Shown: piece after piece, positions 6,630 through 57,984 of the stretch
Numbering within the stretch: position 1 is the stretch's first letter
Layout of the letters: each line of letters starts with the position of its first letter
NCBI GenBank assembly: GCA_944329425.1
Contig: CALVIG010000003.1
Location: 51,460-115,459 of the forward strand
Direction: 5' to 3'
Length of the DNA stretch: 64,000 bases
DNA from: an uncultured Bacilli bacterium
Lineage (GTDB): Bacteria > Bacillota_I > Bacilli_A > RF39 > UBA660
Translations under genes and position numbers: made by a program
The notes under the pieces: model-generated
Seen by the model: the letters and a program-made list of their open reading frames with translations, nothing else
Told to the model about the DNA's origin: nothing
Databases searched by the model: none

Positions 6630-6701
6630 ACAGTTGTTATAATATAAAAGATTTTATATCTATGACTTTGTAAAAGTCATGGCGAAAGGAGCTATGAGAG
6701 T

Positions 6702-35284: not shown

Positions 35285-36097
35285 CTAATTAGAGGATTGT
35301 AACCTGTAATTTACAGGGGACAGTCCTTTTAATTTTACTTTAATTCTATCATAATTGTAATAATAAATATAGTCATCTATTGCTTTTATCAAGTCATCTA
35401 ATGTTTTATAATTATCTTCTTGATCATAAAACATTTCTGTTTTGAGTATGCCAAAAAAGTTTTCCATCATTCCATTATCCATACTATTTCCTTTTCTAGA
35501 CATGCTTTGTTTTATACCATTATTTTTTAATCTTTGTTGATATGATTCATGTTGGTATTGCCAGCCTTGATCCGAATGAAATATCAATCCATTAAGATTA
35601 TTATTCTTATCAAACGCTTTATTAAGCATATCGTTTATTTGTTCTAAGTTAGGTGATTTAGAAGTGTTATAAGATATTACTTCTCCATTAAATCCATCTA
35701 ATATTGGTGATAAATAACATTTCTCTCCACGAAGATTAAATTCTGTAACATCTGTATACCATTTTTTATTAGGTTTATCTGCATTAAAATCTCTTTCGAT
35801 TAAATTATCAGCAATTTTACCAATTGTTCCTTTATAAGAAGAGTATTTTCTTTTGTTTCTTTTTAATGGTTTTAATCCTAATTTAACCATTAATCTATAA
35901 ACTTTTTTATGATTAACATTATAACCTTGATTTCTTAATTCTAATGTAATTCTACGATACCCATATCTTTCTTTATTATTAATAAATATTTCTTTTATTT
36001 TTTCTATTATTTCTTTATTTTTATCATCTTTGTCTATTTTAGATAAAGTATAATAATATACTGATTTAGCTAAACCAGATACTTGTAGAAGAATCAT
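35285..36097 (-). CDS. IS3-family transposase OrfB (DDE integrase core)
   Basis: rve-type motifs KKWYTDVTEF, LIFHSDQGWQYQ and ENFFGILKTE (DDE triad). Confidence 0.85.
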   Translation of the reverse strand: MILLQVSGLAKSVYYYTLSKIDKDDKNKEIIEKIKEIFINNKERYGYRRITLELRNQGYNVNHKKVYRLMVKLGLKPLKRNKRKYSSYKGTIGKIADNLIERDFNADKPNKKWYTDVTEFNLRGEKCYLSPILDGFNGEVISYNTSKSPNLEQINDMLNKAFDKNNNLNGLIFHSDQGWQYQHESYQQRLKNNGIKQSMSRKGNSMDNGMMENFFGILKTEMFYDQEDNYKTLDDLIKAIDDYIYYYNYDRIKVKLKGLSPVNYRLQSSN

Positions 36098-36132
36098 TAA
36101 TGGATATGTTAGCCGAAGTTCACTTACAACAT

Positions 36133-36642
36133 TTACTTTTTCTTCTGTTGTTGATTCTTCCTTGCTTGAACAACGGCTCTCAATTTTTTTGAGTAATCTA
36201 GTTCTGCTTTCAAATATAAATTTTCTTCTTCTAATCTTTTAACTTTTTCTTCTATGGTTTCATTTTTTGGGGGCTTTGTAGATTTCTTTGGCATAGTCGA
36301 TCGACCTCGCTTTCGTTCAACTATATTATAACCCATTTCTTTATATTTTTTTATCCAAGTATGTAACATTCCTTCACTTGGAAGTCCTTCATCAACAGAA
36401 ACAGATTGTATTGATTCATTATTTAATAATACTCGATTTATAATTTGTTCTTTTTGGTAAGGTGTATAATATTTATTTTTAGTATGTTTTAATATATCAA
36501 ATCCATGCCTATCTATAAGCCAAACCAAATATTGAATATTATGCTTAGTTATACCATATTTAGAATGTAGAGTATTTAATGTTACTCCTGCTTTTCTTTT
36601 ATTATATATTTCTATTTTTTCTTCATAACTTAATTTGCTCAT
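36133..36642 (-). CDS. IS3-family transposase OrfA (HTH)
   Basis: HTH and leucine-zipper-like region (LKAELDYSKKLRAV). It lies upstream of and overlaps orfB in the -1 frame. Confidence 0.8.
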   Translation of the reverse strand: MSKLSYEEKIEIYNKRKAGVTLNTLHSKYGITKHNIQYLVWLIDRHGFDILKHTKNKYYTPYQKEQIINRVLLNNESIQSVSVDEGLPSEGMLHTWIKKYKEMGYNIVERKRGRSTMPKKSTKPPKNETIEEKVKRLEEENLYLKAELDYSKKLRAVVQARKNQQQKKK

Positions 36643-36849: not shown

Positions 36850-37779
36850 GTGAAGACAAAGGAGTTTAAAACCCTAGATGAGCAAATAGAAATTTTAAAA
36901 AACCGTGGGTTGGTTATTAATGACATTGATGGTGCGAAAAGATTGCTATTAAGAGAAAATTATTTCTTTATTAACGGATATCGTCATATATTTCTTAAGA
37001 ATCGTAATGGAAATGACTTCATAAAGGGTACTACCTTTGAAGAGTTGTATGCGGTATTTCAGTTTGATAGGAATTTTAGAAACATCTTGTTTAAGAATTT
37101 GCTTATCGTTGAAAACAACTTAAAATCAATACTATCATATTGTTTATCAAAAAAATATGGTATTAAAGAAAAAGATTATTTAAAACCTTCTAATTTTTCT
37201 CAAGACATAAAAAAAATTAGACAAGTAAACGATGTTTTAAGCAAGATTAAAAGGCAAATAAAATTAAATGGTAGGCAGCATAGTGCTACGCTTCACTATT
37301 TAAGTAATTATGGTTATGTTCCTTTATGGATCTTAGTAAAGTTACTATCTTTTGGTATGATTAATGAATTATATTCTATACTAAAACCGGAGGATAAATT
37401 ACTAATTGCAGAATATTATAATTTAGATGTTGAAACGTTAGGAATATACATAGGACTTTTATCTAATTATCGTAATTTGTGCGCCCATGAAGACATTGTA
37501 TATGATCATAAAACGCAAAAAGAAATTCCTGATACTAGATACCATAGAATACTTGATATACCTACCATGAATGATGAATATGAGTATGGTAAAAATGATA
37601 TTTATGCCGTTGTAATAATGTTAAAACAAGTTTTAGACGAAAGGGATTTTAGCTCTTTTATAGGTGAAGTAAGTTACGAACTAAGTTTGTTAGATGGAAG
37701 GGTAGAAGTTATTCCTCAAAGAAAGATTTTAGATAAGATGGGATTTCCCGAAAATTGGGAGGATATCACTAATATTTAA
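36850..37779 (+). CDS. Abi_2 family abortive-infection protein (AbiD/AbiF-like)
   Basis: N-terminal motif FKTLDEQIEILKNRGLVI...ENYFFINGYRHIF is typical of Pfam Abi_2. GTG start. Confidence 0.65.
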   Translation: MKTKEFKTLDEQIEILKNRGLVINDIDGAKRLLLRENYFFINGYRHIFLKNRNGNDFIKGTTFEELYAVFQFDRNFRNILFKNLLIVENNLKSILSYCLSKKYGIKEKDYLKPSNFSQDIKKIRQVNDVLSKIKRQIKLNGRQHSATLHYLSNYGYVPLWILVKLLSFGMINELYSILKPEDKLLIAEYYNLDVETLGIYIGLLSNYRNLCAHEDIVYDHKTQKEIPDTRYHRILDIPTMNDEYEYGKNDIYAVVIMLKQVLDERDFSSFIGEVSYELSLLDGRVEVIPQRKILDKMGFPENWEDITNI

Positions 37780-42191: not shown

Positions 42192-42428
42192 GACTCTTTA
42201 TAATTGATGTCTTACTTTTTAAATTTTAGAAATATTTATTAGTTTATCTACTAGTTTTTATAAACAGCATAAGATATTTTAAAATATATATTTTTTAAAG
42301 ATTGTTTTGTGATATTTTTATTATTTTTCTAATATAAAAATAACATTTACTTTTATATTAGAAAGATATATAATAACACCCAAAAAGGAGCAATGCGTTT
42401 AATTATAATTATATTGGTATAAAGTCTT

Positions 42429-42660
42429 AGATATTGAGTAGTACATCTAAACACTTTTACTTTTGCAGTAAATGTTTGTGGCATTGTAGTGGGTGTGCTA
42501 CTATGATTATAGAGTTTTATTTTTTTGATTTATTTTTTTATATAAATCTCGGATGCGTTTTTGTTAATAAAATCCCATCAGGGATTTTTTTTGTGCAATT
42601 TTATTTAGCACGAGCACCGCCTTTCTGTAAAAAAAAATTATTTTTACGGAAAGGAGTTTA
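42429..42660 (+). promoter_or_regulatory. Conserved leader upstream of sigma-like regulator copy A (paralogous to 54777-55011)
   Basis: About 85 nt are roughly 80% identical to copy B (AGATATTGAGTAGTACATCTAAACACTTTTACT ... GGGTGTGCTACTATG). This is followed by a terminator-like hairpin plus T-run (42570-42593), the shared CACCGCCTTTCT box and a second hairpin abutting the RBS. Confidence 0.4.
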
Positions 42661-42661
42661 A

Positions 42662-43147
42662 ATGAATATACCTAGGAGACGAAAAAGTAAGGATAATCCT
42701 TATACCTTAGGCGTTAATAATGAAGGTAAGTACTTAGTTTCATTTAAAAATGCTAATAATTATAAAGTGTGTATTGAAGTTAGTTATTTAATTTATAAAA
42801 CATTAAACGAATTTGAATTAAAAGATTTATCTCAGTTAAATGAATTTGATAGACATATAGAACATCTAGATTTAATGGAAAATGATGAAATTCTATATAA
42901 AAGAATTATAAAAAAAGAGTTATCTATTGAAGAAATAGTTAATATTAAAATTTCTAAAGAAAATTTAATTTATGCTATAAATAAACTTTCTATAAATCAA
43001 AAAACAAGAATAATGAAATACTATTTTGATGGTAAAACAGAAAGTGATATTGCTTTGGAAGAAAATGTGACACAGCAATCTGTTCATATAGGTTTAAAAC
43101 GAGCAATAAAAAAATTAAGAGAAATTTTAAAAAGTTTAGAAAAATAG
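42662..43147 (+). CDS. Sigma-70 region-4-like HTH regulator (small alternative-sigma/late-activator-like protein), copy A
   Basis: 161 aa. C-terminal MKYYFDGKTESDIALEENVTQQSVHIGLKRAIKKLREILK fits the sigma-70 region 4 HTH pattern. About 50% identical to the ORF at 55012-55491. Confidence 0.55.
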   Translation: MNIPRRRKSKDNPYTLGVNNEGKYLVSFKNANNYKVCIEVSYLIYKTLNEFELKDLSQLNEFDRHIEHLDLMENDEILYKRIIKKELSIEEIVNIKISKENLIYAINKLSINQKTRIMKYYFDGKTESDIALEENVTQQSVHIGLKRAIKKLREILKSLEK

Positions 43148-43180
43148 TCTGTTATTTTTCATTTTAGTGAGGAAATAGGT

Positions 43181-43245
43181 GAAGGGATATATATCCCTTT
43201 TGCCTATCTTTATTAATTAGGTATGATCTTTGACAACTTAATATT
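43181..43245 (+). promoter_or_regulatory. Conserved terminator hairpin plus TTGACA-containing 21-nt box downstream of sigma-like copy A
   Basis: Hairpin GAAGGGATATATATCCCTTT, then GATCTTTGACAACTTAATATT. The same arrangement, nearly identical, occurs at 55531-55611 after copy B. It lies about 80 nt upstream of the tail-collar gene. Confidence 0.4.
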
Positions 43246-43323
43246 ATTAATTTAAAAATGTCTAGTGAAATTCCAGTAGAAAAAATTTTATGATGAAGCT
43301 GTTAAAGAAAGGAGAATGATATT

Positions 43324-44466
43324 ATGAATTTAACAGAACAAACTGTAAGTGGAACCAATGAAGTTAGCTTACAAGATTCACTTAATGCTTCTTTATTGAA
43401 GTTAAAAGTGACAATGGGTGCAAATACAGTAGCACCAGAAGATACAGATTGTTTTATCTATGTAGATAAAGCGTCTAGTGCAAATCCTACGGAAGAAAAG
43501 AAAAGTTATCTTTTTGAACTTTCAGAACCATTAAGATATTGTAATGGAGTAGGAGATGAGTTATTACAAGAAATAAAAATTGTAAATAACGATGTTGTAA
43601 TGAAAACAACGGTAACAAGAAAGGTAGGAGTATCTGAAGATGGTACTTTAAGTGTTTTAGAAACACCTACAACAGAGGAGATTGATGCATATCCAGTTAC
43701 TTTATTTGAAGGAATTAATTATATTTATACTAATTATTCAAATGCGGATATTGAATTAATATATCCAAAAGATACTGATGAAAACAAAATGTTTTTAAAC
43801 AATGCCATTTATTGTAATCACAAGTTAAAAAATGATGGTGAATTTTCGCTTGATGATATTTACTTTAAAGACGCATTTACTAAAACAGAAGATAAATTAA
43901 ACCTAGAAGTAAATAATGCTTCAGTTGATTGTATTACTTCGAATAATAATAAATTTAGCTTAGATAGTGAAGGTAATTTAATTGTTAATTCAATTACTAC
44001 TGCGCAAGGGTCACAAGGCTCTTCATCTGATAATGAAACAATATGTAATTTGATATATCCAGTTGGTAGTATTTATATGTCTGTTAATAGTACTGATCCA
44101 ACAACTTTATTCGGCGGTACATGGGAACAGTTAAAAGATAGATTCCTACTTGGAGCTGGTGATTCCTATGGAAACGGAGCAACCGGTGGAGAAGCAAACC
44201 ATACATTAACTATTAATGAGATGCCAAGCCACACTCACACTCAAAATCCACATACACACAGTGTTAGAGCAAAAGGGTTTAATGGTACTTCGAACTTGAA
44301 TGGATATTATATGCTACGTAGAAATAGAAATGATGATAGCTATGATGATGTCGATCCAAATGCAGCTATGAGTGCAACAGCAACTAACCAAAATACTGGT
44401 GGAGGAGCAAGTCATAATAATATGCCACCATACTTAGTAGTATACATGTGGAAAAGGGTATCTTAA
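43324..44466 (+). CDS. Phage tail-collar (receptor-binding fibre tip) domain protein
   Basis: C-terminal PVGSIYMS...LFGGTWEQL...RFLLGAG...GGEANHTLTINEMPSHTHT...HNNMPPYLVVYMWKR is the tail-collar/MdpB-type domain. The N-terminal part is fibre-like. Confidence 0.6.
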   Translation: MNLTEQTVSGTNEVSLQDSLNASLLKLKVTMGANTVAPEDTDCFIYVDKASSANPTEEKKSYLFELSEPLRYCNGVGDELLQEIKIVNNDVVMKTTVTRKVGVSEDGTLSVLETPTTEEIDAYPVTLFEGINYIYTNYSNADIELIYPKDTDENKMFLNNAIYCNHKLKNDGEFSLDDIYFKDAFTKTEDKLNLEVNNASVDCITSNNNKFSLDSEGNLIVNSITTAQGSQGSSSDNETICNLIYPVGSIYMSVNSTDPTTLFGGTWEQLKDRFLLGAGDSYGNGATGGEANHTLTINEMPSHTHTQNPHTHSVRAKGFNGTSNLNGYYMLRRNRNDDSYDDVDPNAAMSATATNQNTGGGASHNNMPPYLVVYMWKRVS

Positions 44467-44855
44467 TGATAACCCTTCCCATTAAGGATCATTTAATTAT
44501 GCGAGCACTTAATAATTATTCTAATACTGTTTATGAACTTAATATTTTAAAAAGAAGATTAAATTTACTTGTAAATTATGAATCCGAAATTGCTTTGGAA
44601 AAAAATAGGTTAATAAATTTAATAGATAACGAACAACAGGTGATAAAGCAAATGGAAAATGATTTACAAAATTTATCTGGTATTGAAAATAAACTGTATT
44701 ATGAAATTGTTATTAATGGTACTAACGTAACAAAGGCAATAGATAAAGTAGCAACAAATGAATTTATTGATACTTCAACTTTATGGAAAAATTATTATCC
44801 TAAAGTAAAAAAAGAAATAGATAAATTATATCTACTATTATCTAAAGAAAATTAA
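44448..44855 (+). CDS. Hypothetical protein (possible fibre chaperone/accessory), translationally coupled
   Basis: Overlaps the 3' end of the previous gene. 135 aa. No recognisable family. Confidence 0.35.
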   Translation: MEKGILMITLPIKDHLIMRALNNYSNTVYELNILKRRLNLLVNYESEIALEKNRLINLIDNEQQVIKQMENDLQNLSGIENKLYYEIVINGTNVTKAIDKVATNEFIDTSTLWKNYYPKVKKEIDKLYLLLSKEN

Positions 44856-44875
44856 ATATAGAAAGGAGATTAGCA

Positions 44876-47800
44876 ATGAAAGAAATAGAGTTAATTGGAA
44901 AACGAAAAGCAAGAGAAAAACATTTCTTAAAAGAAAATGGAATAATAACAGCTAATGTCTATGATGAAGATATTCATTTTTTAAAAGATGGAAAATATGA
45001 AGAGATTGATAATACACTTATTGAGGAAAATGGCTATTTAGTAAATAAAAATAATGCGTATAAAGTTTCTTTTGCAAAGAAAAGTAAAGATGAACTAATG
45101 GAAATGAGTATAGGTAATAATTATATTAAAACAATGTTGGTTTATCAAAAAGAAGTGGATTTAAAAGAAAATATTACTCAGTCCAAACTTCACAAAAACG
45201 TATGTTATCCTAATATAATAGAAAATGTTGATTTAGAATATAATATTATGCCTGGAAAGGTAAAAGAAGCAATTATATTAAAAAATAAAAATGTTGATTT
45301 AGAAAAATTAGTTTTCATAATTGAAACAAACACAAAATTAGAATTAAAGGAAAATAAAAAAATTATTTCAACGGTAGACAATAATAATTGTTTCGAATTT
45401 GACGCACTTTATATGATAGATGCTAACTTTAAAACAAATAATAATATTAATTATAAATTAACTAAAAGAGATGATGATATATATCAACTTGAATTAATTG
45501 TTGACAAAGAATGGTTAAATAATGAAGAAACAAAATATCCAGTAATAATTGATCCAACAATAACAAATTCCGGTCAGAACAATAGTGTCTATGATACTTA
45601 TATTTATCCTGGTGATACTGGAGTTGATAGAAATAGTCAAGATATTTTAAAAGCAGGGGTTGAAAGAATTGATGGCGTTGATAGGGAAAATAGAACGTTA
45701 ATAAAATTTGATTTGCCTGTAATAGGTACCGGTAGTCAAGTAATAGGTGCCAATTTACAGTTATATGGTTATCCAAAAATACCTTCAGATAGTGAAACAG
45801 ATTTGTTGTTGGCTCATAGAATCACCACAAATTGGGATGAAAGTACTGCTACATGGGATAATATGAATGACAAATTTGATCCGTTGGTTGAAGGTTTAAT
45901 ATTTGTTGGAAGAGGATACTATGATTTTGAAAACGAAACTATTCATCCATTTAATTGTGGTGGTGATATTACTAGATTAGTGAGAAAATGGTACACAGGA
46001 ACGCCTAATTATGGTATTATGTTGAAACAAAATCTATTGAAGTATAATGCAAATATATTACCAGCATTTTATTCAAACAATAATAATTCTACTGGTATAA
46101 ATCCTAAGCCTGTATTATCTATATCATATAGAAATCAAAATGGAATAGAAAATTATATGAATTATCAGACAAAAGGTTTTTATGATGGCGAAGCATATGT
46201 CAATAACTATAATGGAAATTTGACCACAATATTTGATATTGGTTCAACAATAAGTGGAAAAATGCCAATTGGTTTAAATCTTATATATAATACAAATGAT
46301 GTTGTGTTAGAAAAAAATTATGGTTATGGATTAGGGTATAAATTAAATTTACACCAAACTATAAAAGAACAACTTATTGATTCTAAAACATATTTAGAGT
46401 ATTGTGATGAAGATGGTACTTTACATTATTTTTTAAATGAAAAAGCTATGTTTGATGAAAATGGTTATAATATCATTAATACACAAAACATTTATTATGA
46501 TGAAGATGGGTTGGATATGACTATAACAAAAAATAGTAATAGTTATGTGCTTAAAGATAAAAATGGAAATACTATGACATTTATTAAAAATGGTGATAAA
46601 GCATATTTAACTAAGATAGAAGATGTTAATGGTAATAAAAATACTATTGAATATAGTCCTGAGAATGCAATAGTAAAAATAATAGATGCTAATGATAATG
46701 AAATAAATTTAGAATATGGTGCAACTACAATAACTATAATAAGTCCAGAACAAACAGTTACTTTAAGTTATTTAAATAACCAAGTAGTCAGTATAAATAG
46801 TTTAACAGGAATAACTCAATTCGAATATAATGCAAATAATATTATATCTAAAATTATTGATATTGATGGTATGAAAACTACTTATGATTACTATGATCAA
46901 AAACCATACAAAGTAAAAAAAGTATCTGAATATGGTGCTGAAAATACTTTGGGAGAATATTTTGAGATGTTGTATGATTTTGATTCTACAACTATAGTAG
47001 ATTCAAAAGAAAACGCAAAAAATATTATATTTAATTCTCAAGGTAGTGTAGTATCAATTAGTGGTTTGAAGGATAAGGATGATATAAAAAATTCGTATGG
47101 GCTTAGCCAAATAAATGGCACATCTGGAATTACCATTAATAATGGAAACAATAATAAATTATTAAGAACAGAGATACCACTTAAATATGTTAAAAATTTA
47201 TTATCTAATACAAGTTTTGAAAAAAATGTAATTAATTTTACTAGTACAGAAGATGTTAATATGATTATAACTAATGAAACCTCGGAAACAGGTGCTAATA
47301 GTTTAAAAGCTACTAGTACAATTAATAATCAAGCATTAACACAAAGTATAGATGTAGAAAAAGGTGATTATTATACATTTAGTAGTTATATTAAAAATAC
47401 TGGTGATGTTAAATTAATTCTTAGTTACTTTGACAAGAATGGGATTATTATTCAATCTCAAAGTGAATTAATAAAGCCGAGTGATGTTTTTGAAAGATAT
47501 GATGTAACAATAAAGTATCCTGAAGATGCAACAAGTAATTTAACTTTAAAAATAATTTTAGAAGATGCTGGAACAGTATATGTTGATGATGTACAGTTGG
47601 AAACCGGTGAAGTTGCAAATAATTATAATTTATTAGAAAATTCAGATTTTTCTAATGGTTTCTCTGATTGGGAGGTTTCAGCTAGTGATAATTTAACAGG
47701 TGATTTATTATCTATAAATGATGTATTTGAAATTGTTTCTTTGCCAGACAATTTAAACGCACTTAAAATAAAAATGAATCCTGCTTATAATTATATTATG

Positions 47801-50800
47801 GAAAAAACATATAATATAAGTGGAAAAGGCGGAGATGTATTTAATCTTTCATTTTGGTATAAAAATGAAGGTGTAGATTCAGATTTATCAGAGTATTATG
47901 GAAGCAGACCATATATTATTTTTCATTATACAAATCAAGAAGATGGACATTGCATTATTCCTACACCGTTACTTAATATAAATGATCAATCATGGCAATA
48001 TGTTTCGAATGATTTTACTGCTGAAAAAGATTATAGTTCTATTACGATTAGTATTCAACATCAATATACTGCAAATGATTTTTATATTACAAATATGAGT
48101 TTATTTAAAGATATAAGAAATGTTTATTATGAGTATGATGAATTTGGAAATGTAATATTAGAAAAAAATTTAGATGATAATAGTAATAAATATAATTATG
48201 ATAAAGATAATAAATTGATTCAGATGACTAATCCAAAAGGCAAAAATTTTACTATTGAATATGATAATATTTTTAAAAATAGGACTATCAATGGTATGAC
48301 TGATATGGGGGTATCTAATCAATTAAAATATGACAATAATAATAATCCAATTATATCTAGGGTTCAAAAAAATAATATTATAGGTGATATAACAGATGGT
48401 TTATATAAAATAAGATTAAAGGGAAGCGATATATATTTAAGAAATATATCAAATGATATTAAATGTAAATTAGAAAACTGTAACCATGATATATGGAAAT
48501 TAGAAAAGATAGATGAATATGTTAAAATCCATCACTCTATTCTTACTGATAAATATTTTACTGTTCAGAATAATAATATTATTTTATCAAATGAAAATGG
48601 AGATAATTCACTATTTAAGTTGAAGAAAAATAAAAACGGAAGTTATTCTATAAAATTAAAACTAGAGGATAAATACTTAAAATATAATAATTCAGGAATA
48701 GAAATATCAACTTTGATAGATGAAGATTACAGTTTTGAATTTTATTTTGAAACTGTAGATTGTGATTTATTTATTGAAAATAAAGCGGAGTATACAGAAA
48801 ATGGTGCGTTTATAAGTCGAATAATTGATTCATTAAATCATTCTTATAATTATGAAATTGATCAGGAAAAAGGTTTGACTAAATCAGAAACAAACGAAAA
48901 AGGTATTAAAACTAATTATAATTATAATTCTAAAAAGAAACTTATTTCATCTATATGCAACGATAAAAGTGTATTTTATGAATATAATGATAAAAATTTG
49001 TTAAGTAAAGTTAAGCATGGTAAGAAAGAATATAATTTTATTTATGATGAATTTTCTAATGTTAAGACAATAAAAATGGGTAATAATATTAGGCTTATTA
49101 CATATAATTATGATACAAATGGAGATTTGATTTTATTAGATTATGGGAATGAAGGCTCTCTAAATTATGAGTATGACGAATTTTCTAGATTAAGTAAAAA
49201 AACTAAAGAAAATGATACCTATGAATATAAGTATAATGGAAGTGGAGATTTGGTAAAAATTTTATCAAATAATTACATAACTAAATATACTTATGATTTA
49301 GCTAAAAGATTGAGTAAATATAATTTTGATGATTTTATAATTAAATATAAATATGACTCAAATGAAAATATAACGAATATTAAGTATAGTTTGGGTAGCA
49401 TAAATAATGAAATAATAAATACTTTTAATGATGATGATTTGATAATTAATACGTCATTTTCAAATAAAAAAATAAATTATACCTATGATTTACTAGGTAG
49501 ATTAAAAAGTGAAAAAATAAACAATATATATGAAACAAGTTATGAATATATAGAGAATGGAAAAAATACTTCTACTCTATTGAAAAAGCTTAAAACAGGT
49601 AATAATATATATTCATACAAATATGATAAATTAAATAATTTAACGCATGTTTATTATAATGACGACTTATTAACTAAATATTATTATGATGACTATAATC
49701 AGCTTATAAAGGAAATCGATTTTGAAGATAAAAAAATTATAAAATATAAATATGATAATGTAGGTAATATGTTATACAAAAAAGTATATGCTTTGGATAC
49801 CTATGACTTTATTACCCAAGATATATATTATTACAATAATGATGATTGGCAAGATCAATTAACTTCGTTTAATAACACCGCTATTACTTATGATGAAATA
49901 GGGAATCCATTAACTATAGGTAATAATATTAATCTAAACTGGATTAATGGTAGAGAACTAGAAACTTATAATGATGGTACTAACCTAATTTCGTATAAAT
50001 ATAATTCTGAAGGTATAAGAATAAGTAAAAAGGTGAATAACACGGAAACGAAATATTATTTAGAGGATAATGATATAATATTTGAAAAGAGAGGAAATAA
50101 TGTGCTATACTATTTACGTAATGATATAGATGATTTGTTTGGATTTATGTATAATAACGATTTATATTATTATGTAAAAAATAATAAGAATGATATTGTA
50201 GGTATATTAGATAACAGTTATAATATAGTAGCTAAGTATAAATATGATTCTTGGGGAAAAGTAATTTCTATAACTGATAGTCAAGATAACGATATATCAA
50301 ATAATGTTAATAATATAGGAAATATAAATCCGTTTAGATATAGATCTTATTATTATGATTCAGAAACTAAATTATATTATTTAAATAGTAGATATTATAA
50401 TCCGGAATGGAAAAGATTTATTAATCCTGATTCTTATGCTGGACAAATTGGTGGAAATATATTACTTCACAATATATATATATATTCTTTAAATAATCCT
50501 ATTTTATATAGCGATGAAAGTGGTAATATAGTAGGATTAACATCAGTAGCTGCGGGTGTGTTATACGCTTTTGGAATTGCTGTATTTAAAGCTTCTGTGT
50601 ATGTAGCTGTTAGTGGTTTAGTTGTTGGGGGCTCTATTTATGTGGGAAAAGCCATATCCAATAATAAAAGTAAATCAAAATCAAAGACGAAAGCACAAAG
50701 TAAATCTAAAATAAAAACTGCTGTGGCTGCAAAAGCAAAAACTAGTACAAAAAAATATTCGAACAACAATAAGCCATGTACAGAAGCCTATTTTACAAAA

Positions 50801-51079
50801 GATATGAGAGATGTTGTACGTGGTGAAAGATTAACAATTGAAGAAACAATTGCAAAAGTTAATGCTAAGGGAAATGTTATGTGTGATAATTATTGGCCCG
50901 CTAAAGAAGTTGCTACTGCCATTTCTCCAAATCCAATATGTGAAATAAATAGCATTCAGCATAAAGGATATAAATATTACTATCACTTTCATCCAAATAG
51001 AGATACTTATAAGGATGTACATATATTCTTTGAAGGATTACCATTAGAATTTTTTGAAGGGAAGGGAAATTGTAGATGA
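44876..51079 (+). CDS. Rhs/YD-repeat polymorphic toxin (2067 aa): DNRLRE-like domain, CBM-like and ricin-B-like lectin modules, YD repeats, RHS core, variable C-terminal toxin domain
   Basis: RBS GAAAGGAGA. Dozens of YD-type repeats (e.g. YKYDSNENITNIKY, YTYDLLGRL). RHS core end motif FRYRSYYYDSETKLYYLNSRYYNPEWKRFINPD...NIYIYSLNNPILYSDESGN. N-terminal region with DNRLRE-like segment (DRENRTLIKFDL). No signal peptide. Confidence 0.85.
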   Translation: MKEIELIGKRKAREKHFLKENGIITANVYDEDIHFLKDGKYEEIDNTLIEENGYLVNKNNAYKVSFAKKSKDELMEMSIGNNYIKTMLVYQKEVDLKENITQSKLHKNVCYPNIIENVDLEYNIMPGKVKEAIILKNKNVDLEKLVFIIETNTKLELKENKKIISTVDNNNCFEFDALYMIDANFKTNNNINYKLTKRDDDIYQLELIVDKEWLNNEETKYPVIIDPTITNSGQNNSVYDTYIYPGDTGVDRNSQDILKAGVERIDGVDRENRTLIKFDLPVIGTGSQVIGANLQLYGYPKIPSDSETDLLLAHRITTNWDESTATWDNMNDKFDPLVEGLIFVGRGYYDFENETIHPFNCGGDITRLVRKWYTGTPNYGIMLKQNLLKYNANILPAFYSNNNNSTGINPKPVLSISYRNQNGIENYMNYQTKGFYDGEAYVNNYNGNLTTIFDIGSTISGKMPIGLNLIYNTNDVVLEKNYGYGLGYKLNLHQTIKEQLIDSKTYLEYCDEDGTLHYFLNEKAMFDENGYNIINTQNIYYDEDGLDMTITKNSNSYVLKDKNGNTMTFIKNGDKAYLTKIEDVNGNKNTIEYSPENAIVKIIDANDNEINLEYGATTITIISPEQTVTLSYLNNQVVSINSLTGITQFEYNANNIISKIIDIDGMKTTYDYYDQKPYKVKKVSEYGAENTLGEYFEMLYDFDSTTIVDSKENAKNIIFNSQGSVVSISGLKDKDDIKNSYGLSQINGTSGITINNGNNNKLLRTEIPLKYVKNLLSNTSFEKNVINFTSTEDVNMIITNETSETGANSLKATSTINNQALTQSIDVEKGDYYTFSSYIKNTGDVKLILSYFDKNGIIIQSQSELIKPSDVFERYDVTIKYPEDATSNLTLKIILEDAGTVYVDDVQLETGEVANNYNLLENSDFSNGFSDWEVSASDNLTGDLLSINDVFEIVSLPDNLNALKIKMNPAYNYIMEKTYNISGKGGDVFNLSFWYKNEGVDSDLSEYYGSRPYIIFHYTNQEDGHCIIPTPLLNINDQSWQYVSNDFTAEKDYSSITISIQHQYTANDFYITNMSLFKDIRNVYYEYDEFGNVILEKNLDDNSNKYNYDKDNKLIQMTNPKGKNFTIEYDNIFKNRTINGMTDMGVSNQLKYDNNNNPIISRVQKNNIIGDITDGLYKIRLKGSDIYLRNISNDIKCKLENCNHDIWKLEKIDEYVKIHHSILTDKYFTVQNNNIILSNENGDNSLFKLKKNKNGSYSIKLKLEDKYLKYNNSGIEISTLIDEDYSFEFYFETVDCDLFIENKAEYTENGAFISRIIDSLNHSYNYEIDQEKGLTKSETNEKGIKTNYNYNSKKKLISSICNDKSVFYEYNDKNLLSKVKHGKKEYNFIYDEFSNVKTIKMGNNIRLITYNYDTNGDLILLDYGNEGSLNYEYDEFSRLSKKTKENDTYEYKYNGSGDLVKILSNNYITKYTYDLAKRLSKYNFDDFIIKYKYDSNENITNIKYSLGSINNEIINTFNDDDLIINTSFSNKKINYTYDLLGRLKSEKINNIYETSYEYIENGKNTSTLLKKLKTGNNIYSYKYDKLNNLTHVYYNDDLLTKYYYDDYNQLIKEIDFEDKKIIKYKYDNVGNMLYKKVYALDTYDFITQDIYYYNNDDWQDQLTSFNNTAITYDEIGNPLTIGNNINLNWINGRELETYNDGTNLISYKYNSEGIRISKKVNNTETKYYLEDNDIIFEKRGNNVLYYLRNDIDDLFGFMYNNDLYYYVKNNKNDIVGILDNSYNIVAKYKYDSWGKVISITDSQDNDISNNVNNIGNINPFRYRSYYYDSETKLYYLNSRYYNPEWKRFINPDSYAGQIGGNILLHNIYIYSLNNPILYSDESGNIVGLTSVAAGVLYAFGIAVFKASVYVAVSGLVVGGSIYVGKAISNNKSKSKSKTKAQSKSKIKTAVAAKAKTSTKKYSNNNKPCTEAYFTKDMRDVVRGERLTIEETIAKVNAKGNVMCDNYWPAKEVATAISPNPICEINSIQHKGYKYYYHFHPNRDTYKDVHIFFEGLPLEFFEGKGNCR

Positions 51080-51804: not shown

Positions 51805-51908
51805 TTAGATTTAGGTATTATTAATTTGAACTTTAACTCTAAAATTTGCAAAAGGCATTTTGATCGAGTTATCATTATGTCTTTTAATATTTTTCAAAAG
51901 GAAAAATT

Positions 51909-52208
51909 ATGATAAATTTTATAATAAATTATTGGATTGAGATATTATTGACGTCTATTACATCAGGAATTATATATATTTTTAAACAATATATGGGTTT
52001 AAAAAACGGAATGAAATCTCTTTTAAGAAATGAAATAATAAGAATATATGATAATCAAGAAAAATTAGGATATTGTCCTAGTTATATGAAAGAGAACATT
52101 AAAGAAATGTATGAAAACTACCATAAATTAGGTGGTAATGGAATGGTTACAAAAATGACTAATAAATTATATGAATTACCAAATGTAAAGGAGGATGATA
52201 AAGTATGA
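51909..52208 (+). CDS. BhlA/UviB-like holin-family protein (N-terminal transmembrane helix plus coiled region)
   Basis: 99 aa. Single N-terminal transmembrane segment. First gene of a three-gene overlapping cassette that ends in a lysin. Confidence 0.35.
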   Translation: MINFIINYWIEILLTSITSGIIYIFKQYMGLKNGMKSLLRNEIIRIYDNQEKLGYCPSYMKENIKEMYENYHKLGGNGMVTKMTNKLYELPNVKEDDKV

Positions 52209-53153: not shown

Positions 53154-53284
53154 TTAATAAAGGGGTACAAATTATTATTTTGTATCCTTTTAAAATATTC
53201 ATATTTACTAAAATAATTAAATATGATAATATAAACTTATAAAATGTGTTGATTAGCAGTAAATAATATTTATTAGGAGAAATC

Positions 53285-54613: not shown

Positions 54614-54776
54614 AAGTAAAATTATATTTCATTTTTTAAAAACATTAAAATAGTAAAGTTTTAAATCATGTTTTTATTAGTTTTATATTATAAAAATCTC
54701 ATTTACTTTTCTGATGTAAAAGTATATAATAGCACTTAAAAAAAAGCAGTGCTTATTATAAAGTATAAGCGATTTT

Positions 54777-55011
54777 AGATATTTGAGTAGTACATCTATA
54801 AACTTTTACTAGTGCAGTAGTTTAGTAGCATTGCTATTAGGGTGTGCTACTATGTATGAAAAGATATTTAATAGTCAATATTTTATTTTTAATGCCGTAT
54901 GGGGCTTGTTCGTTCAAGTCCCGTGCGGCATTTTTTTTATACCTGTTTTTATTATGTTTAAAATTCGTTCACCGCCTTTTCTATTGAATAACTCAATAGA
55001 AAGGAAGGTAA
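54777..55011 (+). promoter_or_regulatory. Conserved leader upstream of sigma-like regulator copy B (paralogous to 42429-42660)
   Basis: Same conserved 5' block, internal hairpin plus T-run (54894-54938), CACCGCCTTTCT box and RBS-proximal hairpin CTTTCTATTGAATAACTCAATAGAAAG. Confidence 0.4.
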
Positions 55012-55491
55012 ATGAATAATCCAAAAAGACGCAAAAGTAAAGATAATCCATATACTTTAATTTATAATTCACAAGATGATAAATATATTATTTCTTTTAA
55101 TGATTCTAGTAACCATAAAATTATTTTTGAAATAGATCGTTCTTTATATATGTTATTTAATGAATTTGAATTAGAAGACTTATCAGAGTTAAATGAATTT
55201 GATAGACATATAGAGCATCTTAATATAATGGAGAGTGATGAGATTCTATATAAAAGAACCCTGAAAAAGAGTTTATTAGTAGATGACATTGTTGATAAAA
55301 AATTAGAAATGGAAACATTGAGAGAAGCTATAAATGAACTTCCAATGACGCAGAAAAGGAGATTAAAAAAGTACTATTTTGAAAATAAAACGCTGGAAGA
55401 TATAGCAAAAGATGAACATTGCTCAAAAGTGGCTGTTAAATATAGCATTGATTGTGCAATTAGTAATTTAAGAAAAAAATTAAAAAGTTAA
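55012..55491 (+). CDS. Sigma-70 region-4-like HTH regulator, copy B
   Basis: 159 aa. Paralogue of 42662-43147 (shared KSKDNPYTL, LNEFDRHIEHL, KYYF...K..S blocks). Confidence 0.55.
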   Translation: MNNPKRRKSKDNPYTLIYNSQDDKYIISFNDSSNHKIIFEIDRSLYMLFNEFELEDLSELNEFDRHIEHLNIMESDEILYKRTLKKSLLVDDIVDKKLEMETLREAINELPMTQKRRLKKYYFENKTLEDIAKDEHCSKVAVKYSIDCAISNLRKKLKS

Positions 55492-55530
55492 ATTTTTAGG
55501 CTTAACTTTTAGGCTAGAAGTGAGGAAATA

Positions 55531-55611
55531 GATGGAAGGGTAAAATATCCTTTCCATCTGTTTTTGATTTTAATAACAAAACACAGAAGTTGATCTTTGA
55601 CAACTTAATAT
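55531..55611 (+). promoter_or_regulatory. Conserved terminator hairpin plus TTGACA box downstream of sigma-like copy B
   Basis: GATGGAAGGGTAAAATATCCTTTCCATC hairpin, then GATCTTTGACAACTTAATATT (identical 21-mer to copy A). Confidence 0.4.
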
Positions 55612-55880
55612 TTATTCATCAGATACGTTCTTATTGTTCTGGAGCACGTTAACAAGTACGCTTGTCGGTAAATACTTGGTTATAAAACTAGATGGCAACT
55701 AGTATTGCGAAGATAAATAATAAGGTTAAAGATACTTCTGTTCAGCCATAGACTCAATCATTGGGAGCAGTCCGGAGTGATCCTCGGGAGAGTGAAAATC
55801 TCATGGAATTAGTTAGCCACTAATCGTCTGGTGAATGTTAAAAGTACTTGTTTATATTAAAATGGAAGGGAATTTATTAA

Positions 55881-56081
55881 ATGAAAAAGTATAAAGTAAA
55901 AATAAAATTAATATTTGAGACTACTATGTATCATTCACAGACGAGTTTGAAAAAGACTAAAGAAGACATTAATAGGGTTATAACACATTATTTAAAGGGT
56001 AAAAAACTTAATATTTTAAATTTATTTAATACTACACCGCGAATTATTTGTAAGGTGGAAAAAGATGATAGAAAACAATGA
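55881..56081 (+). CDS. Hypothetical small basic protein
   Basis: 66-aa ORF with RBS GGAAGGGAA. Upstream of the recombinase. Confidence 0.25.
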   Translation: MKKYKVKIKLIFETTMYHSQTSLKKTKEDINRVITHYLKGKKLNILNLFNTTPRIICKVEKDDRKQ

Positions 56082-56373
56082 TATTAATTAGTAAAAAAAT
56101 ATTATGATTAAAAAGTTTTGCATACATATAAATAGGAGGAAGATAATGTGAATGAAGTTGAATATAATGTTAATGTTTTTGTAAATAAAAATGGTTATAA
56201 TTCAAAAGATAAGAAAATAATTGAAAAAAAATTTAATCAAAAATTATTAAAGATAATTATTTCTATAGAAAAAAATAAAGTTTGTCAAGTTTAAAAAAAT
56301 AAAAAAAGTATAATTTATATTTTTAAAAATTTATTTTAGTATTAATTTGCAAGAAAGGAGGGTGCTTTCTATA

Positions 56374-57984
56374 ATGAAGAATAGAGTTGATATATATACA
56401 AGACTTTCCGATGAAGACAGATATAAAAAAAATAAAAGTGATGATAGTGAATCTATAGCTAACCAGAAAAGCATGTTATTAAAATATGCGTTAGAGCAGG
56501 GCTGGGAAGTAATAAATGTTTATAGTGATGATGATTATTCCGGTGCTGATAGTAATAGACCACAATTTCAAAAACTTTTAAAGGATTGTGAAAATGGCGT
56601 TGTTGATATAGTGCTTTGCAAAACCCAGAGTAGGTTTTCTCGTGATATGGAAGTCGTTGAAAGGTATATACATAATAAATTTATTGAATGGGGAGTACGC
56701 TTCGTTAGTATTGTTGATAATGCAGATACTGCAAATAAAGGCAATAAAAAATCTAGGCAAATTAATGGCCTTGTAAACGAATGGTATTTAGAAGATTTAT
56801 CAGATAATATTAGAAATTCATTGCAAAACAGAAGAGAAGATGGTTTATTTTTAGGATCTTTCGCTCCATATGGTTACATTAAGGATCCGGATAACAAAAA
56901 CAAGTTATTAATTGATCCCATTGCTGCTGAAATAGTAAGAGAAATATTTAACTTGTATAAATCCGGAGTTGGTTATTATAATATTGCCACAACTTTAAAT
57001 AAAAGAGGCGTTTTAACACCTTCTAATTATAAAAAAGAAAATGGTAGTAAATATGTATGCGGGAAAGCACGATTTAAAGAGAAAACAAAATGGTCTCAAG
57101 ATACGATTGCTAAAATATTAAGAAATGAAGTTTATATAGGTAATTTAGTGCAAGGAGTAAAAACTTATGTAAGTTATAAAAATCATAAATCTTATATTAA
57201 GCCTAAAAATGAATGGACTTATTCTTATGGTACACACGAACCTATAATAGATATGGAAACGTGGAATATGGTTCAATCTAAATTTAGATCTAGGACAAGA
57301 GTTAGTAGAACAACAGGTGAAGTATATTTGTTAAGTAAGAAGATTTATTGTAAAGAATGTGGTGGTGTATTTAATAGACAAATTTATCACACAAAAGACG
57401 GAAAAGTTCCATATATGAAATGTAAGGGAGTAAAGCTAGCTAATCGTGATTGTTCTAATAGGGAATCAATAAGATGTGAAAAAGTTGAAAAAATAATATT
57501 AGATGAATTGAATAAACAATTAGACTTATATTATAATGTTGATGAATTAGAAAGGTTATATGTTTTGCAAAAAAAATCTTTGAATAGTAGTACTTTATTA
57601 AAGAAAGAAACTTTAAATAATGAAAAACAAATATTACAGGAAAAAGTCGATAAAAAAAATGAACATTATAAAGCTTTATATGAAGATAAATTGGAGGGAA
57701 TAATTACGCAAGAAGACTTTATAATGTTTAGAGAAAAATTTTTAAATGAAATTGAAGAATATAAAAATAGAATCAAAATTATTGACGAGGAATTGAAATC
57801 GTTAAAATCGGAAGAAGAAAATGTTGAATCGAGCAGAGAAGTTTTTGAAAAATATAGACATATTAATAAACTTACAAAAGAAATTGTTGATGAATTTGTT
57901 GATGTTGTTAAAATAGGTAAAATAAATAAAGAAGATAATAGTAGAGATATAGATATTCATTTGAATATCATTAATTTAGATTAA
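56374..57984 (+). CDS. Large serine recombinase (resolvase/invertase N-terminal catalytic domain, recombinase domain, zinc ribbon, coiled-coil)
   Basis: N-terminal VDIYTRLSDEDR...IANQKSML (catalytic Ser region), YSGADSNRPQFQKLL, a C-terminal Cys cluster (CKECGG...CKG...C) and a long coiled-coil. The ATG at 56374 with RBS AGGAGGG is the preferred start. The stop lies 20 bp from the att core. Confidence 0.85.
   Translation: MKNRVDIYTRLSDEDRYKKNKSDDSESIANQKSMLLKYALEQGWEVINVYSDDDYSGADSNRPQFQKLLKDCENGVVDIVLCKTQSRFSRDMEVVERYIHNKFIEWGVRFVSIVDNADTANKGNKKSRQINGLVNEWYLEDLSDNIRNSLQNRREDGLFLGSFAPYGYIKDPDNKNKLLIDPIAAEIVREIFNLYKSGVGYYNIATTLNKRGVLTPSNYKKENGSKYVCGKARFKEKTKWSQDTIAKILRNEVYIGNLVQGVKTYVSYKNHKSYIKPKNEWTYSYGTHEPIIDMETWNMVQSKFRSRTRVSRTTGEVYLLSKKIYCKECGGVFNRQIYHTKDGKVPYMKCKGVKLANRDCSNRESIRCEKVEKIILDELNKQLDLYYNVDELERLYVLQKKSLNSSTLLKKETLNNEKQILQEKVDKKNEHYKALYEDKLEGIITQEDFIMFREKFLNEIEEYKNRIKIIDEELKSLKSEEENVESSREVFEKYRHINKLTKEIVDEFVDVVKIGKINKEDNSRDIDIHLNIINLD

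Follow-up and report, generated by a model that had tools for sequence, protein, structure and literature searches.

In the ermC, ermB and cat systems, a ribosome stalled on a short leader open reading frame (ORF) melts a hairpin that sequesters the Shine-Dalgarno (SD) sequence of the next gene, while in CTnDOT, attenuation in the tetQ-rteA-rteB leader feeds a regulator cascade for mobile-element excision. The group-5 sigma factors TcdR, UviA, BotR and TetR, which contain regions 2 and 4, are found together with toxin and holin genes. Considered here is a 64,000-nucleotide stretch of DNA from an uncultured Bacilli bacterium (assembly GCA_944329425.1, contig CALVIG010000003.1; hereafter, the window), in which a regulatory module comprising a leader, a gene for a protein with sigma region 4, a terminator and a 21-nucleotide box appears twice, as copies A and B. 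The explanation of the whole that is somewhat favored is that a switch based on a stalling peptide controls the region-4 regulator, which in turn fires a promoter at the box. It also seems rather probable that A and B are each a complete regulatory cassette in its own right, belonging to a family of mobile elements with large serine recombinases, including integrative and conjugative elements (ICEs), integrative and mobilizable elements (IMEs) and transposons.

RAPP-type arrest peptides include ApdA, ApdP, ApcA, SecM (RAGP), CruR and the Streptomyces lividans RAPP/RGPP upstream ORFs (uORFs) found before genes encoding ECF sigma factors (PMC7897499, PMC10951233, PMC12992588). RAPP and RGPP stall Escherichia coli and Bacillus subtilis ribosomes, blocking peptide-bond formation with the Pro-tRNA occupying the A site (PMC10951233), while RSPP and RDPP are partially arrest-permissive in ApdA/ApdP mutants, and few tetrapeptides are avoided as strongly as the RAPP-like motifs, above all in Bacillota (PMC12992588). 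A 2025 survey reported RGPP/RAPP uORFs to be absent in many Gram-positive groups, Bacillota included (PMC12992588), and no mention of mobile genetic elements was found in the arrest-peptide literature retrieved. In Tn916, the regulatory region comprises orf12 leader-peptide attenuation, the sigma-like Orf7 with Orf8, Porf7, canT and xis-int (PMC11658703, PMC5812530), with canT being an antiterminator RNA between orf8 and xis (PMC11658703).

Two copies of the module and a conserved putative leader peptide

Comparison of the two copies revealed identity that varies along the module. The 5' block (42429-42505 in copy A and 54777-54854 in copy B), containing GAGTAGTACATCTA and GGGTGTGCTACTATG, is identical at 64 of 80 positions (80%), as compared to 58% for the promoter and 5' untranslated region, 50% for the mid-leader segment that includes a terminator and 57% for the segment with the CACCGCC box and the hairpin at the ribosome-binding site (RBS). 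The regulator coding sequences share 66% DNA identity, with their products, of 161 and 159 residues, being 53% identical. Behind the gene, a 3' hairpin region of 46% identity is followed by the 21-mer GATCTTTGACAACTTAATATT, identical at 21 of 21 positions (43225-43245 and 55592-55612), and then by sequence of 23% identity, such that the 21-mer is an island of complete identity between the 46% and 23% flanks. Even with three mismatches allowed, the 21-mer was matched only twice in the window, with 0.01 matches expected. The module begins upstream of the region first described, at a TTTACT-17-TATAAT promoter-like site common to both copies.

In this manner, all of the features listed as shared in the original prediction, which had been made from the sequence of the window, were located in both copies at or near the positions proposed, namely a 5' block of ~85 nt at ~80% identity, an internal terminator-like hairpin, the CACCGCC box, a hairpin abutting the RBS, paralogous proteins of ~160 residues at ~50% identity, a conserved terminator behind the gene and an identical 21-mer. 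Conservation of the leader extends beyond these copies, with the layout seen in the window recurring in most of the related loci fetched. Because this set of ordered features recurs beside homologous genes in dozens of other genomes, conservation lies far above chance, bearing out the claim of a functionally constrained regulatory module.

Between the 5' block and the regulator gene, each leader contains a uORF. That of copy A reads ...FYLARAPPFCKKKLFLRKGV and ends right at the regulator ATG, while that of copy B reads ...FKIRSPPFLLNNSIERKVNE and holds both a terminator with its T-run (54891-54932) and the RSPP codons (54966-54977). The sequence CACCGCCTTT, earlier listed as a box, is coding and reads (A/S)-Pro-Pro-Phe within the conserved uORF. 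Equivalent co-directional uORFs were found in most related loci, and in many of these an SD and an ATG at canonical spacing open the uORF. When the three reading frames, anchored on the anti-SD sequence, were compared across 59 distinct contexts, the Pro-Pro frame (CCN-CCN) showed a median of 69 open codons, versus 11 and 17 in the other frames, and was the longest frame in 49 of the 59. At position -2 relative to the prolines, Arg was found in 55 of 59 contexts (codons AGA 35, AGG 4, CGT 13 and CGA 3), while position -1 was occupied by one of four residues in 57 (Ser 37, Gly 10, Ala 7 and Asp 3), with Ser being encoded by AGT, AGC, TCG, TCA or TCT. Cys precedes the Arg in 35 of the 59. Because the switches between codon families for Arg and Ser are inexplicable by RNA pairing, the pattern points to selection acting on the peptide and not on the RNA alone. 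Within the 64-kb window, R[ASGD]PP was found in six-frame open stretches of at least 30 residues in uORFs A and B and nowhere else. Judged by its sequence, the uORF motif would belong to the RAPP-like class of ribosome-arrest motifs.

The uORFs occur in two forms. In the long class, to which A and B belong, an intrinsic terminator lies inside the uORF, while uORFs of the short class begin behind the terminator and encode no more than MF(Y/C)R(I/N)RSPP..., as in MFYRIRSPP, with ~9 codons leading to the motif. The position of the uORF stop varies, from the loop of the hairpin to its 3' arm or a point past the regulator ATG; what is conserved is, therefore, the motif and not termination-reinitiation. 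The peptides of copies A and B are hydrophobic, as expected of T-rich DNA, with others being basic or reaching the motif within ~9 codons. Given that many contain no convincing signal or transmembrane segment and some only ~9 codons, the leader peptides seem unlikely to serve as force-sensing 'monitoring substrates'. Many database members of the regulator family (P0041, P0128, P0136, P0140, P0143 and others) are 200-230 residues long, with the match starting from residue ~57-75; in such entries, gene prediction has probably joined the leader in frame with the regulator, hiding the uORF.

The second Pro codon of the motif is also the first part of a hairpin that buries the regulator SD. This anti-SD/SD hairpin is the minimum-energy fold in all 58 distinct sequences considered (mean -18.5 kcal/mol), starting in each at the second Pro codon and pairing with GGAGG. 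RNAalifold recovered the stem from 33 diverse members, with compensatory changes in 8 of the 9 consensus pairs.

The following model builds on what was observed in silico as to conservation, the reading frame, selection at the level of amino acids, covariation in the hairpin, the domains of the protein and the positional linkage of the box. A sigma-A-type promoter would generate a leader RNA in which 5' structure occludes the start of the leader-peptide ORF. Once translated, the uORF would cross (or, in some relatives, start after) the intrinsic terminator and reach Arg-[Ala/Ser/Gly/Asp]-Pro-Pro, where the second Pro codon opens the 5' strand of the hairpin burying the regulator SD. As RAPP-type arrest occurs with the P site on the first Pro codon and the A site on the second, the anti-SD and most of the 5' arm should be covered by a ribosome halted at Pro-Pro; with the 5' strand so held by a paused or arrested ribosome, the SD, ~30 nt downstream, would be freed and the regulator translated. 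A ribosome following the polymerase along a long uORF could also suppress termination, while without uORF translation, the transcript would either terminate or stay translationally silent. The regulator would then recognize GnTCTTTGAmAAyT just 3' of its own terminator and activate a promoter (TTGAmA, ~17 nt, yAaATA), which would drive a Gp10-like/RHS toxin/lysis operon in copy A, and a pemK-RNA leader, orf66 and a serine recombinase in copy B. In this chain, we infer that the ribosome arrests, that a signal activates the switch and that the protein binds the box, as well as its role as activator or as part of a sigma factor.

The box, the regulator and the structured leader

Behind the regulator gene, the order of elements is invariant, with AGTGAGGAAA being followed by the terminator hairpin, the stems of which covary across loci, often by a third copy of the hairpin arm, and then by the box. 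The terminator scan called the post-gene hairpin of copy B, while that of copy A falls below the rule of the scan and is visible in the sequence. Box-anchored alignment of 56 distinct sequences yielded tGtTCTTTGAaAATTt.aTat.cattcatcaaAtac, in which the family-wide core GnTCTTTGAmAAyT is nearly invariant; no other non-coding element of the family is as well conserved as the box. Another conserved hexamer, yAaATA, follows TTGAmA at a modal distance of 17 nt, with the geometry of the two being promoter-like. The box always lies 3' of the regulator terminator, whether a recombinase or an RHS operon comes next, and is identical in A and B, while in L001, the ortholog of copy B (L numbers denote related loci), it differs at two positions. 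Elsewhere in the window, the family core pattern gave only background-level matches with up to two mismatches allowed. Because the box is kept before either operon and is identical in A and B while L001 differs, such linkage suggests it to be the cognate site of the adjacent regulator. The earlier proposal that the 21-mer is a candidate cognate promoter thus fits what was seen, the sequence behaving like a cognate site, conserved and always just 3' of the gene.

Two further observations concern this region. The third arm copy (43214-43222 in A; ~55575-55590 in B) lies 2-8 nt 5' of the box, is oriented like the 5' arm and varies in concert with the hairpin arms (AACAGG, AACAAG, AATATA, AATAGG). 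L029, L054, L056 and L071, in which the box directly adjoins the terminator, do not have it. This third copy is a candidate for forming a second hairpin sharing the 3' arm, or for providing DNA sites. In addition, AGTGAGGAAA (43166-43185; 55519-55538) is followed after 6 nt by GTG, ATG or TTG, creating a look-alike of an SD and start codon in the 5' arm of the terminator. The reading of AGTGAGGAAA-N6-NTG as a conserved mini-ORF was rejected, given that its length (3-20 codons) is not conserved.

Turning to the protein, Pfam PF08281 (region 4) matched regulator A with 29.6 bits, relative to a cut-off of 25.7, and regulator B with 25.0 bits, just below that value, while neither showed a Pfam match to sigma region 2 (Sigma70_r2). 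NCBIfam TIGR02937 scored 36.8 (A) and 31.2 (B) bits relative to a cut-off of 42.9, with the alignments covering the C-terminal half only, and all other NCBIfam whole-protein models were far below their cut-offs. Comparison of the family profile with the PDB returned FliA, SigW, SigF and YlxM-like helix-turn-helix (HTH) proteins, aligned over residues 77-158 only. An AlphaFold model (mean pLDDT 79) predicts three beta strands (residues 14-40), a long helix, a second helix and a four-helix region 4. Of this model, Foldseek aligned region 4 only, at ~1 Å root-mean-square deviation (rmsd) to region 4 of SigL, SigE and SigF, while the N-terminal domain gave no convincing match. Two invariant motifs near the N-terminus, PKRRKSKDNPYTL and FELxDLSELNEFDRHIEH, set the regulators apart as a family of their own. 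The best PHROG match was phrog_11138 (unknown function), with the remaining PHROG matches being to generic sigma/HTH families.

As region 4 is found without region 2 and the N-terminus is predicted to be beta/alpha, the regulator appears to be neither a TcdR/UviA-type nor a complete sigma factor; it may be an activator with a region-4 fold or part of a split sigma factor.

The leader transcript would start at the TTTACT-17-TATAAT site, which was also found at the equivalent position in copy B, L001, L002 and L051. When loci were compared side by side, a common leader plan emerged, consisting of hairpin P1 with an RGYAGTAY loop, GGCATTG, an SD and ATG and an intrinsic terminator, followed by a GT-CCN-CC stretch and then by the hairpin ending in GGAGG directly before the regulator start. 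The loop motif pairs with the uORF start region. Scored as duplex energies against shuffled sequences in 24 distinct leaders, this pairing reached p <= 0.05 in 20 (median z = -3.9), with values of -16.7 kcal/mol (z = -5.6) for copy A and -16.8 kcal/mol (z = -5.8) for copy B. The pairing strands vary by locus (AGTAGTACATCT / GGGTGTGCTACT in A and B; AAGCAGTATTTCT / AGAAATACTGCTT in L004; GCAGTATTC / GAATACTGC in L059), and in A and B, the extended pairing spans the weak SD (GGG) of the uORF. Because the loop motif pairs with the uORF start and its weak SD, the 5' element probably gates uORF initiation. Part of P1 cannot form together with the extended long-range helix.

Within a close set of ~8 distinct sequences with the leader type of the window, 96% of cells were paired and one compensatory pair was seen; this count was confined to the close set because distant leaders were not reliably alignable by MAFFT. 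When metagenome contigs were scanned for the exact pattern of the leader core, most matches were due to chance and only ~8 were true leaders, all close relatives. Leaders A and B gave no Rfam match at the gathering threshold and only noise at E <= 10.

In both copies, a GC-rich hairpin with a U-tract sits between the promoter and the regulator gene, and a terminator is found at the equivalent leader position in most related loci, with unrelated stem sequences. No mutually exclusive antiterminator structure was recognized in the folds of leaders A and B. Other subfamilies present different 5' elements before the common SD hairpin, which suggests that input domains are interchangeable. Thus, in L067, L074, L076 and L080, another conserved structured element (TAGTACGAGCCTACAGCCGGAAACGCTGA...TCAGTAGGAACGAGC), ~150-250 nt 5' of the regulator, takes the place of the RGYAGTAY hairpin before the terminator and a short RSPP uORF. 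Near the 5' end of the leader (42390-42420; also in L002, L003, L051 and the second copy of L009), a strong SD and a 3-codon ORF were noted, reading ATG CCT TTA TAG in relatives and extending over 9 codons in copy A; copy B has neither the ATG nor the SD. The same bases can alternatively fold as a small hairpin (AAAGG...CCTTT).

Operons behind the box and distribution of the cassette

The two copies precede different operons. The order regulator-box-Gp10-RHS of copy A was found in a minority of loci (L002, L003, L040, L058, L060, L063 and L066), while the majority arrangement, defined by tblastn across all fetched loci, is that of copy B, namely regulator, pemK RNA, orf66 and one to three serine recombinases. 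Each type has its own orthologs elsewhere, namely L001 for B and L002 and L003 for A. The pemK RNA (RF02913) of copy B, at 55726-55806, scored 57.1 bits relative to a gathering threshold of 34.8, and was found at the equivalent position in 8 of 12 scanned loci; within the window, it was detected in copy B only, with the output leader of copy A giving no Rfam match. Folding of the pemK-containing leader as a single sequence was uninformative (z = +0.6). The TnpX-like recombinase of copy B comprises Resolvase, Recombinase, Zn_ribbon and DUF4368 domains. As a candidate for a region-2 partner of the regulator, orf66 was rejected, being beta/alpha, without a family or helical signature and absent from type-A cassettes.

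The pemK motif, 61 positions in Rfam, forms the 3' domain of a ~190-nt conserved RNA that starts right after the box. This extended RNA was seen in the window (55613-55806) and in L001, L004, L006, L021, L033, L045, L063, L071 and L187, with the 5' domain missing in L071, and has a closing stem that covaries (CCTGTTA/TAACAGT, CCTATTA/TAATAGG, CTTATGTG/CACATAAG). Such leaders precede recombinase operons, PemK toxin genes and some Gp10/RHS operons. Behind the box of copy A, a direct repeat, GTCTAGT-GAAA-TTCCAGT, lies at 43257-43276; it is also found in L002, L003, L058 and L060, from 17 to ~75 nt from the box. The cargo of copy A (43324-54058) encodes a Gp10_C-like tail-fibre/baseplate protein, a 135-residue coiled-coil protein and a 2067-residue RHS protein with a C-terminal hydrophobic and Lys/Ser-rich segment and a toxin tip, followed by a 242-residue candidate immunity protein, small proteins of 99 and 75 residues (both matching PHROGs of unknown function, with the latter looking holin-like) and, at the end, an M23 peptidase and a 257-residue membrane-anchored protein. 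This layout recalls loci in which toxins are released by a holin and an endolysin.

Homology to other recombinase-end loci ends at ~58150-58245, that is, ~170-260 nt past the recombinase stop codon, while ordinary genes (NUDIX, HtrA-like and ribosomal proteins) lie to the left of copy A. The element probably extends from ~42.3 to 58.2 kb, with the left end being putative. Since recombinase-end homology stops where it does, the genes at 58310-61474, to the right of the recombinase, may belong to a neighboring or nested element; these comprise a TnpV-family gene, as in Tn4451, and a gene for a 701-residue fusion of an EcoRI-like N6-adenine methyltransferase and a C5-cytosine methyltransferase. 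An IS3-type transposase pair (HTH_Tnp_1 / rve; 35285-36642, minus strand) and an Abi_2 abortive-infection-like gene (36850-37779) sit between the ribosomal protein genes and the module. The window also contains a tmRNA gene (20262-20625; 157 bits), which could be an integration hotspot, a tRNA (30061-30131, minus strand) and an L31 ribosomal-protein leader (6660-6691).

Relatives of the regulator were numerous, with 125 matches in a protein database clustered at 90%, 178 clusters (50% identity) at E <= 1e-30 and 1072 at E <= 1e-10. The gene was found in 114 loci of species-representative genomes, mostly of uncultured gut Bacilli, 'Tenericutes' and Clostridia. Only 2 of 2.9 million viral contigs contained relatives, and blastn of the module against 50,697 phage records gave no match. 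In annotated contexts, the gene lies near one end of elements with a type IV secretion system coupling protein and accessory genes (ICE contexts), and 3' of it come small ORFs, among them DUF3789 and in some cases a PemK toxin, and the gene for a large serine recombinase. A plasmid search returned 36 matching records, 35 from Enterococcus, with the distant relatives on Enterococcus plasmids being annotated only as 'sigma-70 family'. In E. faecalis plasmid pEGM183 (L187, 2700-4200), where the cassette lies in GC-richer sequence, a 'sigma-70 family' gene for a protein of 140 residues, 29% identical, is preceded by ...CRSPPPSF and the anti-SD/SD hairpin, and followed by the terminator, a box (GTTCCTTGACAACTGAATAT) and pemK-like ATAATGATACTTCG. 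In this mobilizable plasmid, the cassette adjoins the bacitracin-resistance genes bcrABD and a relaxase/MobC pair.

Table 1. Positions of the features of copies A and B within the window.
Feature	Copy	Position	Strand	Remarks
Sigma-A-type promoter-like site, TTTACT-17-TATAAT	A	42346..42374	+	For leader transcript; from sequence, function putative
Promoter-like site, TTTACT-17-TATAAT	B	54702..54730	+	From sequence
Structured 5' leader	A	42427..42502	+	P1, P2, loop-to-start pairing, conserved GGCATTG
Hairpin P1	A	42427-42432/42445-42450	+	
P1 loop strand AGTAGTAC paired with GTGCTACT	A	42437-42444 and 42495-42502		Second strand just 5' of uORF start
Hairpin P2	A	42456-42461/42467-42472	+	
Structured 5' leader	B	54775..54851	+	P1, P2, loop-to-start pairing; homologous to A
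uORF, 52 codons, MIIEFYFFDLFFYINLGCVFVNKIPSGIFFVQFYLARAPPFCKKKLFLRKGV	A	42503..42661	+	TAA stop abuts regulator ATG
uORF, 55 codons, MYEKIFNSQYFIFNAVWGLFVQVPCGIFFIPVFIMFKIRSPPFLLNNSIERKVNE	B	54852..55019	+	Overlaps regulator start by 8 nt
Intrinsic-terminator-like hairpin and T-run, within uORF	A	42569..42596	+	Hairpin 42569-42588
Intrinsic-terminator-like hairpin and T-run, within uORF	B	54891-54932	+	
Codons CGA GCA CCG CCT, Arg-Ala-Pro-Pro (RAPP)	A	42611..42622	+	Earlier called CACCGCC box
SD-sequestering hairpin	A	42620..42654	+	-15.8 kcal/mol; 5' arm from second Pro codon, 3' arm with regulator SD (GGAAAGGAG)
SD-sequestering hairpin	B	54971..55009	+	-16.7 kcal/mol
Regulator gene, 161 residues	A	42662..43147	+	Novel beta3-alpha N-terminal domain (predicted), sigma region 4 (residues ~89-160), basic tail PRRRKSKDNPYTL
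Paralogous regulator gene, 159 residues	B	55012..55491	+	53% identical to A
Invariant AGTGAGGAAA and terminator-like hairpin of regulator gene	A	43166..43211	+	Hairpin ~43171-43211
AGTGAGGAAA and terminator hairpin	B	55519..55565	+	Hairpin 55524-55565
AATTAGGTA, third copy of hairpin arm	A	~43214-43222	+	
Box GATCTTTGACAACTTAATATT	A	43225..43245	+	Proposed -35-region recognition element for downstream operon, from linkage
Identical 21-mer box	B	55592..55612	+	
Output: short leader, then first gene of Gp10_C-like/RHS toxin/lysis cassette	A	43246..44466	+	Cassette to ~54058
Output leader, conserved structured RNA	B	55613..55806	+	3' domain is pemK RNA motif (RF02913, 55726-55806)
Output genes	B	55881..57984	+	Conserved 66-residue ORF (55881-56081); TnpX-like large serine recombinase (56347-57984)

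Alternative explanations and relation to known systems

That the uORF is translated without programmed arrest, such that plain translational coupling or hairpin melting suffices and Pro-Pro is a by-product of CCNCC causing at most a mild EF-P-dependent slowdown, is considered unlikely. This explanation draws on the need for the anti-SD to be C-rich, on the uORF stop abutting or overlapping the regulator ATG in A and B, a classic coupling geometry, on L081-L083, in which the hairpin is kept without Pro-Pro, and on RSPP being arrest-permissive only in part (PMC12992588). Yet Arg at position -2 and a small residue at position -1 are kept through codon-family switches, with the hairpin needing neither, and the Pro-Pro frame is fixed in nearly all loci. 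Moreover, many uORFs stop in the hairpin loop, far from the regulator ATG, and it is, therefore, the motif that is conserved and not coupling. An attenuator or riboswitch made of RNA alone, in which a ligand, protein or RNA acting on the 5' structure decides between read-through and SD exposure with the ORF being incidental, carries even less probability, since the reading frame, the SD and ATG and the amino-acid conservation of R-x-P-P would be left unexplained. Nor did the leaders yield an Rfam match or an identified terminator/antiterminator alternative, although the conserved 5' structure with its conserved loop RGYAGTAY and GGCATTG, the terminator downstream of that structure, the mutual exclusivity of part of P1 and the extended long-range helix, and the subfamilies with different 5' elements before a common hairpin are all what such a device would offer. 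The RNA-only and peptide models are not exclusive, and a role of the 5' element as a sensor controlling initiation at the uORF is possible.

Other alternatives concern the protein and the duplication. The regulator could be a true alternative sigma factor, either TcdR/UviA-like or the region-4 half of a two-subunit sigma factor such as B. subtilis SigO-RsoA, with the box serving as -35 element. Although its region 4 resembles those of FliA, SigW and ECF sigma factors at ~1 Å rmsd, the box contains TTGACA/TTGAAA followed ~17 nt later by the conserved, non-sigma-A yAaATA, and relatives are publicly annotated as sigma-70 family, this reading is doubtful, given that region 2 appeared in no profile or structure comparison, that the N-terminal domain is beta-rich, that all NCBIfam scores are under the cut-offs and that no conserved gene for a region-2-like partner was identified. 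Very improbable is that the copies are a mere segmental duplication, significant as direct repeats for loss or amplification of the RHS cargo. While the copies do point the same way on either side of the cargo, at a distance of 12.3 kb, they are old paralogs by sequence (53% protein identity, no more than 66% DNA identity and a longest exact shared run of 28 nt) and not recombination substrates; moreover, each type has its own orthologs, and a search of the fetched contigs, which was not exhaustive, revealed no recombinant or cargo-less hybrid.

Several observations weigh against the stalling-peptide switch acting on a box promoter. In published mutants, arrest at RSPP, which is the commonest variant and that of copy B, is weaker than at RAPP or RGPP, and Pro-Pro is partly forced by the anti-SD sequence CCNCC. 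The L081-L083 subfamily lacks a Pro-Pro uORF but has kept the hairpin, the box and the pemK RNA; the peptide switch, though common, is, therefore, dispensable in some relatives. In the near-identical L077 and L078, the uORF stop shifts by 52 nt, from the hairpin loop to past the regulator start codon, and conservation of the ORF does not, therefore, extend past the motif. In pEGM183, the uORF start codon was not identified. Covariation is thin in the window's own leader type, with one compensatory pair among 8 close sequences. As for the output, the -10 region is not sigma-A-like, spacing is irregular in some type-A loci, and the predicted recognition helix differs considerably between A and B despite their identical boxes.

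The cassette is nonetheless genuine and conserved, and the original prediction was right in outline as to an attenuated leader, a region-4 protein and a cognate box, being corrected on three points. Attenuator-type control by the leader stood but control by a riboswitch did not, there being no Rfam match and the conserved 3' part reading as a translated leader peptide. The sigma-region-4-like protein was recovered, given the PF08281 match and the ~1 Å rmsd of region 4, but as an incomplete sigma factor; the combined loss of regions 2 and 4 that had been entertained is seen for region 2 alone, which was missing by Pfam, NCBIfam, PDB profile, AlphaFold and Foldseek, speaking against membership in the TcdR/UviA group. 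Neither did kinship with ArpU, a family named for comparison and considered here with the RinA/LtrC-type phage late activators, find support, with no profile match to the annotated families and no phage context upstream of a terminase being seen. Finally, deletion or duplication of cargo mediated by the repeats was unsupported, as the copies are old paralogs with at most 66% identity outside short runs.

It can be proposed, tentatively and with somewhat less than even confidence, that the cassettes represent a widespread, undescribed class of RAPP-like arrest switch in Bacillota mobile elements (ICEs, IMEs and Enterococcus plasmids), coupling the translational state of the host, gated by a structured 5' RNA, to a region-4-only regulator that fires a box before the pemK RNA and the excision recombinase, and duplicated here for an RHS toxin/lysis operon. 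If so, RAPP-type arrest peptides would exist in Bacillota, where a recent proteome-wide survey found them to be largely missing, and would assume a new role in timing mobile-element excision and production of a toxin acting by contact or released by lysis. The orphan pemK RNA motif would gain a genomic and mechanistic context as a leader transcribed from the regulator's box, and a large set of 'sigma-70 family' annotations would correspond to region-4-only regulators with a novel N-terminal domain. Enterococcus plasmids like pEGM183, carrying the cassette beside resistance genes, would offer a culturable test bed in which control of mobility could be studied and perhaps manipulated.

Relative to described systems, the cassette shares with RAPP-type arrest peptides a small uORF with R-[A/G/S/D]-P-P near its functional end, a motif strongly avoided in the rest of the proteome, a putative stall site placed so as to open a structure hiding a downstream SD and, with precedent in Streptomyces, a transcription regulator as the downstream gene. 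It differs in being hosted by Bacillota mobile elements, in Ser being the commonest second residue, in the second Pro codon beginning the anti-SD strand and in the terminator within or before the uORF. Release of an SD hairpin by stalling on a leader ORF would be common to ermC, ermB, cat and CTnDOT, yet those systems need a ribosome-targeting drug, whereas the motif of the cassette is of the intrinsically stalling RAPP class. As with group-5 sigma factors, the gene of a small sigma-related regulator in copy A immediately precedes that of a large toxin and is accompanied by holin- and endolysin-like genes, although this regulator presents region 4 only, together with a beta-rich N-terminal domain. 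Unlike the Rfam pemK motif alone, the RNA described here is ~190 nt long and precedes recombinase and RHS operons, as well as PemK genes. In Tn916, the recombinase is a tyrosine and not a serine recombinase, the leader peptide lies before tetM and not directly before the regulator, and the structured RNA is not the pemK motif with its 5' domain. Still, functions at the recombination end of an ICE are arranged alike in both, the input being attenuated and followed by a small protein resembling sigma region 4, then by a promoter, a long structured RNA and a recombinase, with transcription across the joint after excision, as in Tn916, being probable by analogy. By position, the pemK RNA corresponds to canT, and by the same analogy could act as an antiterminator.

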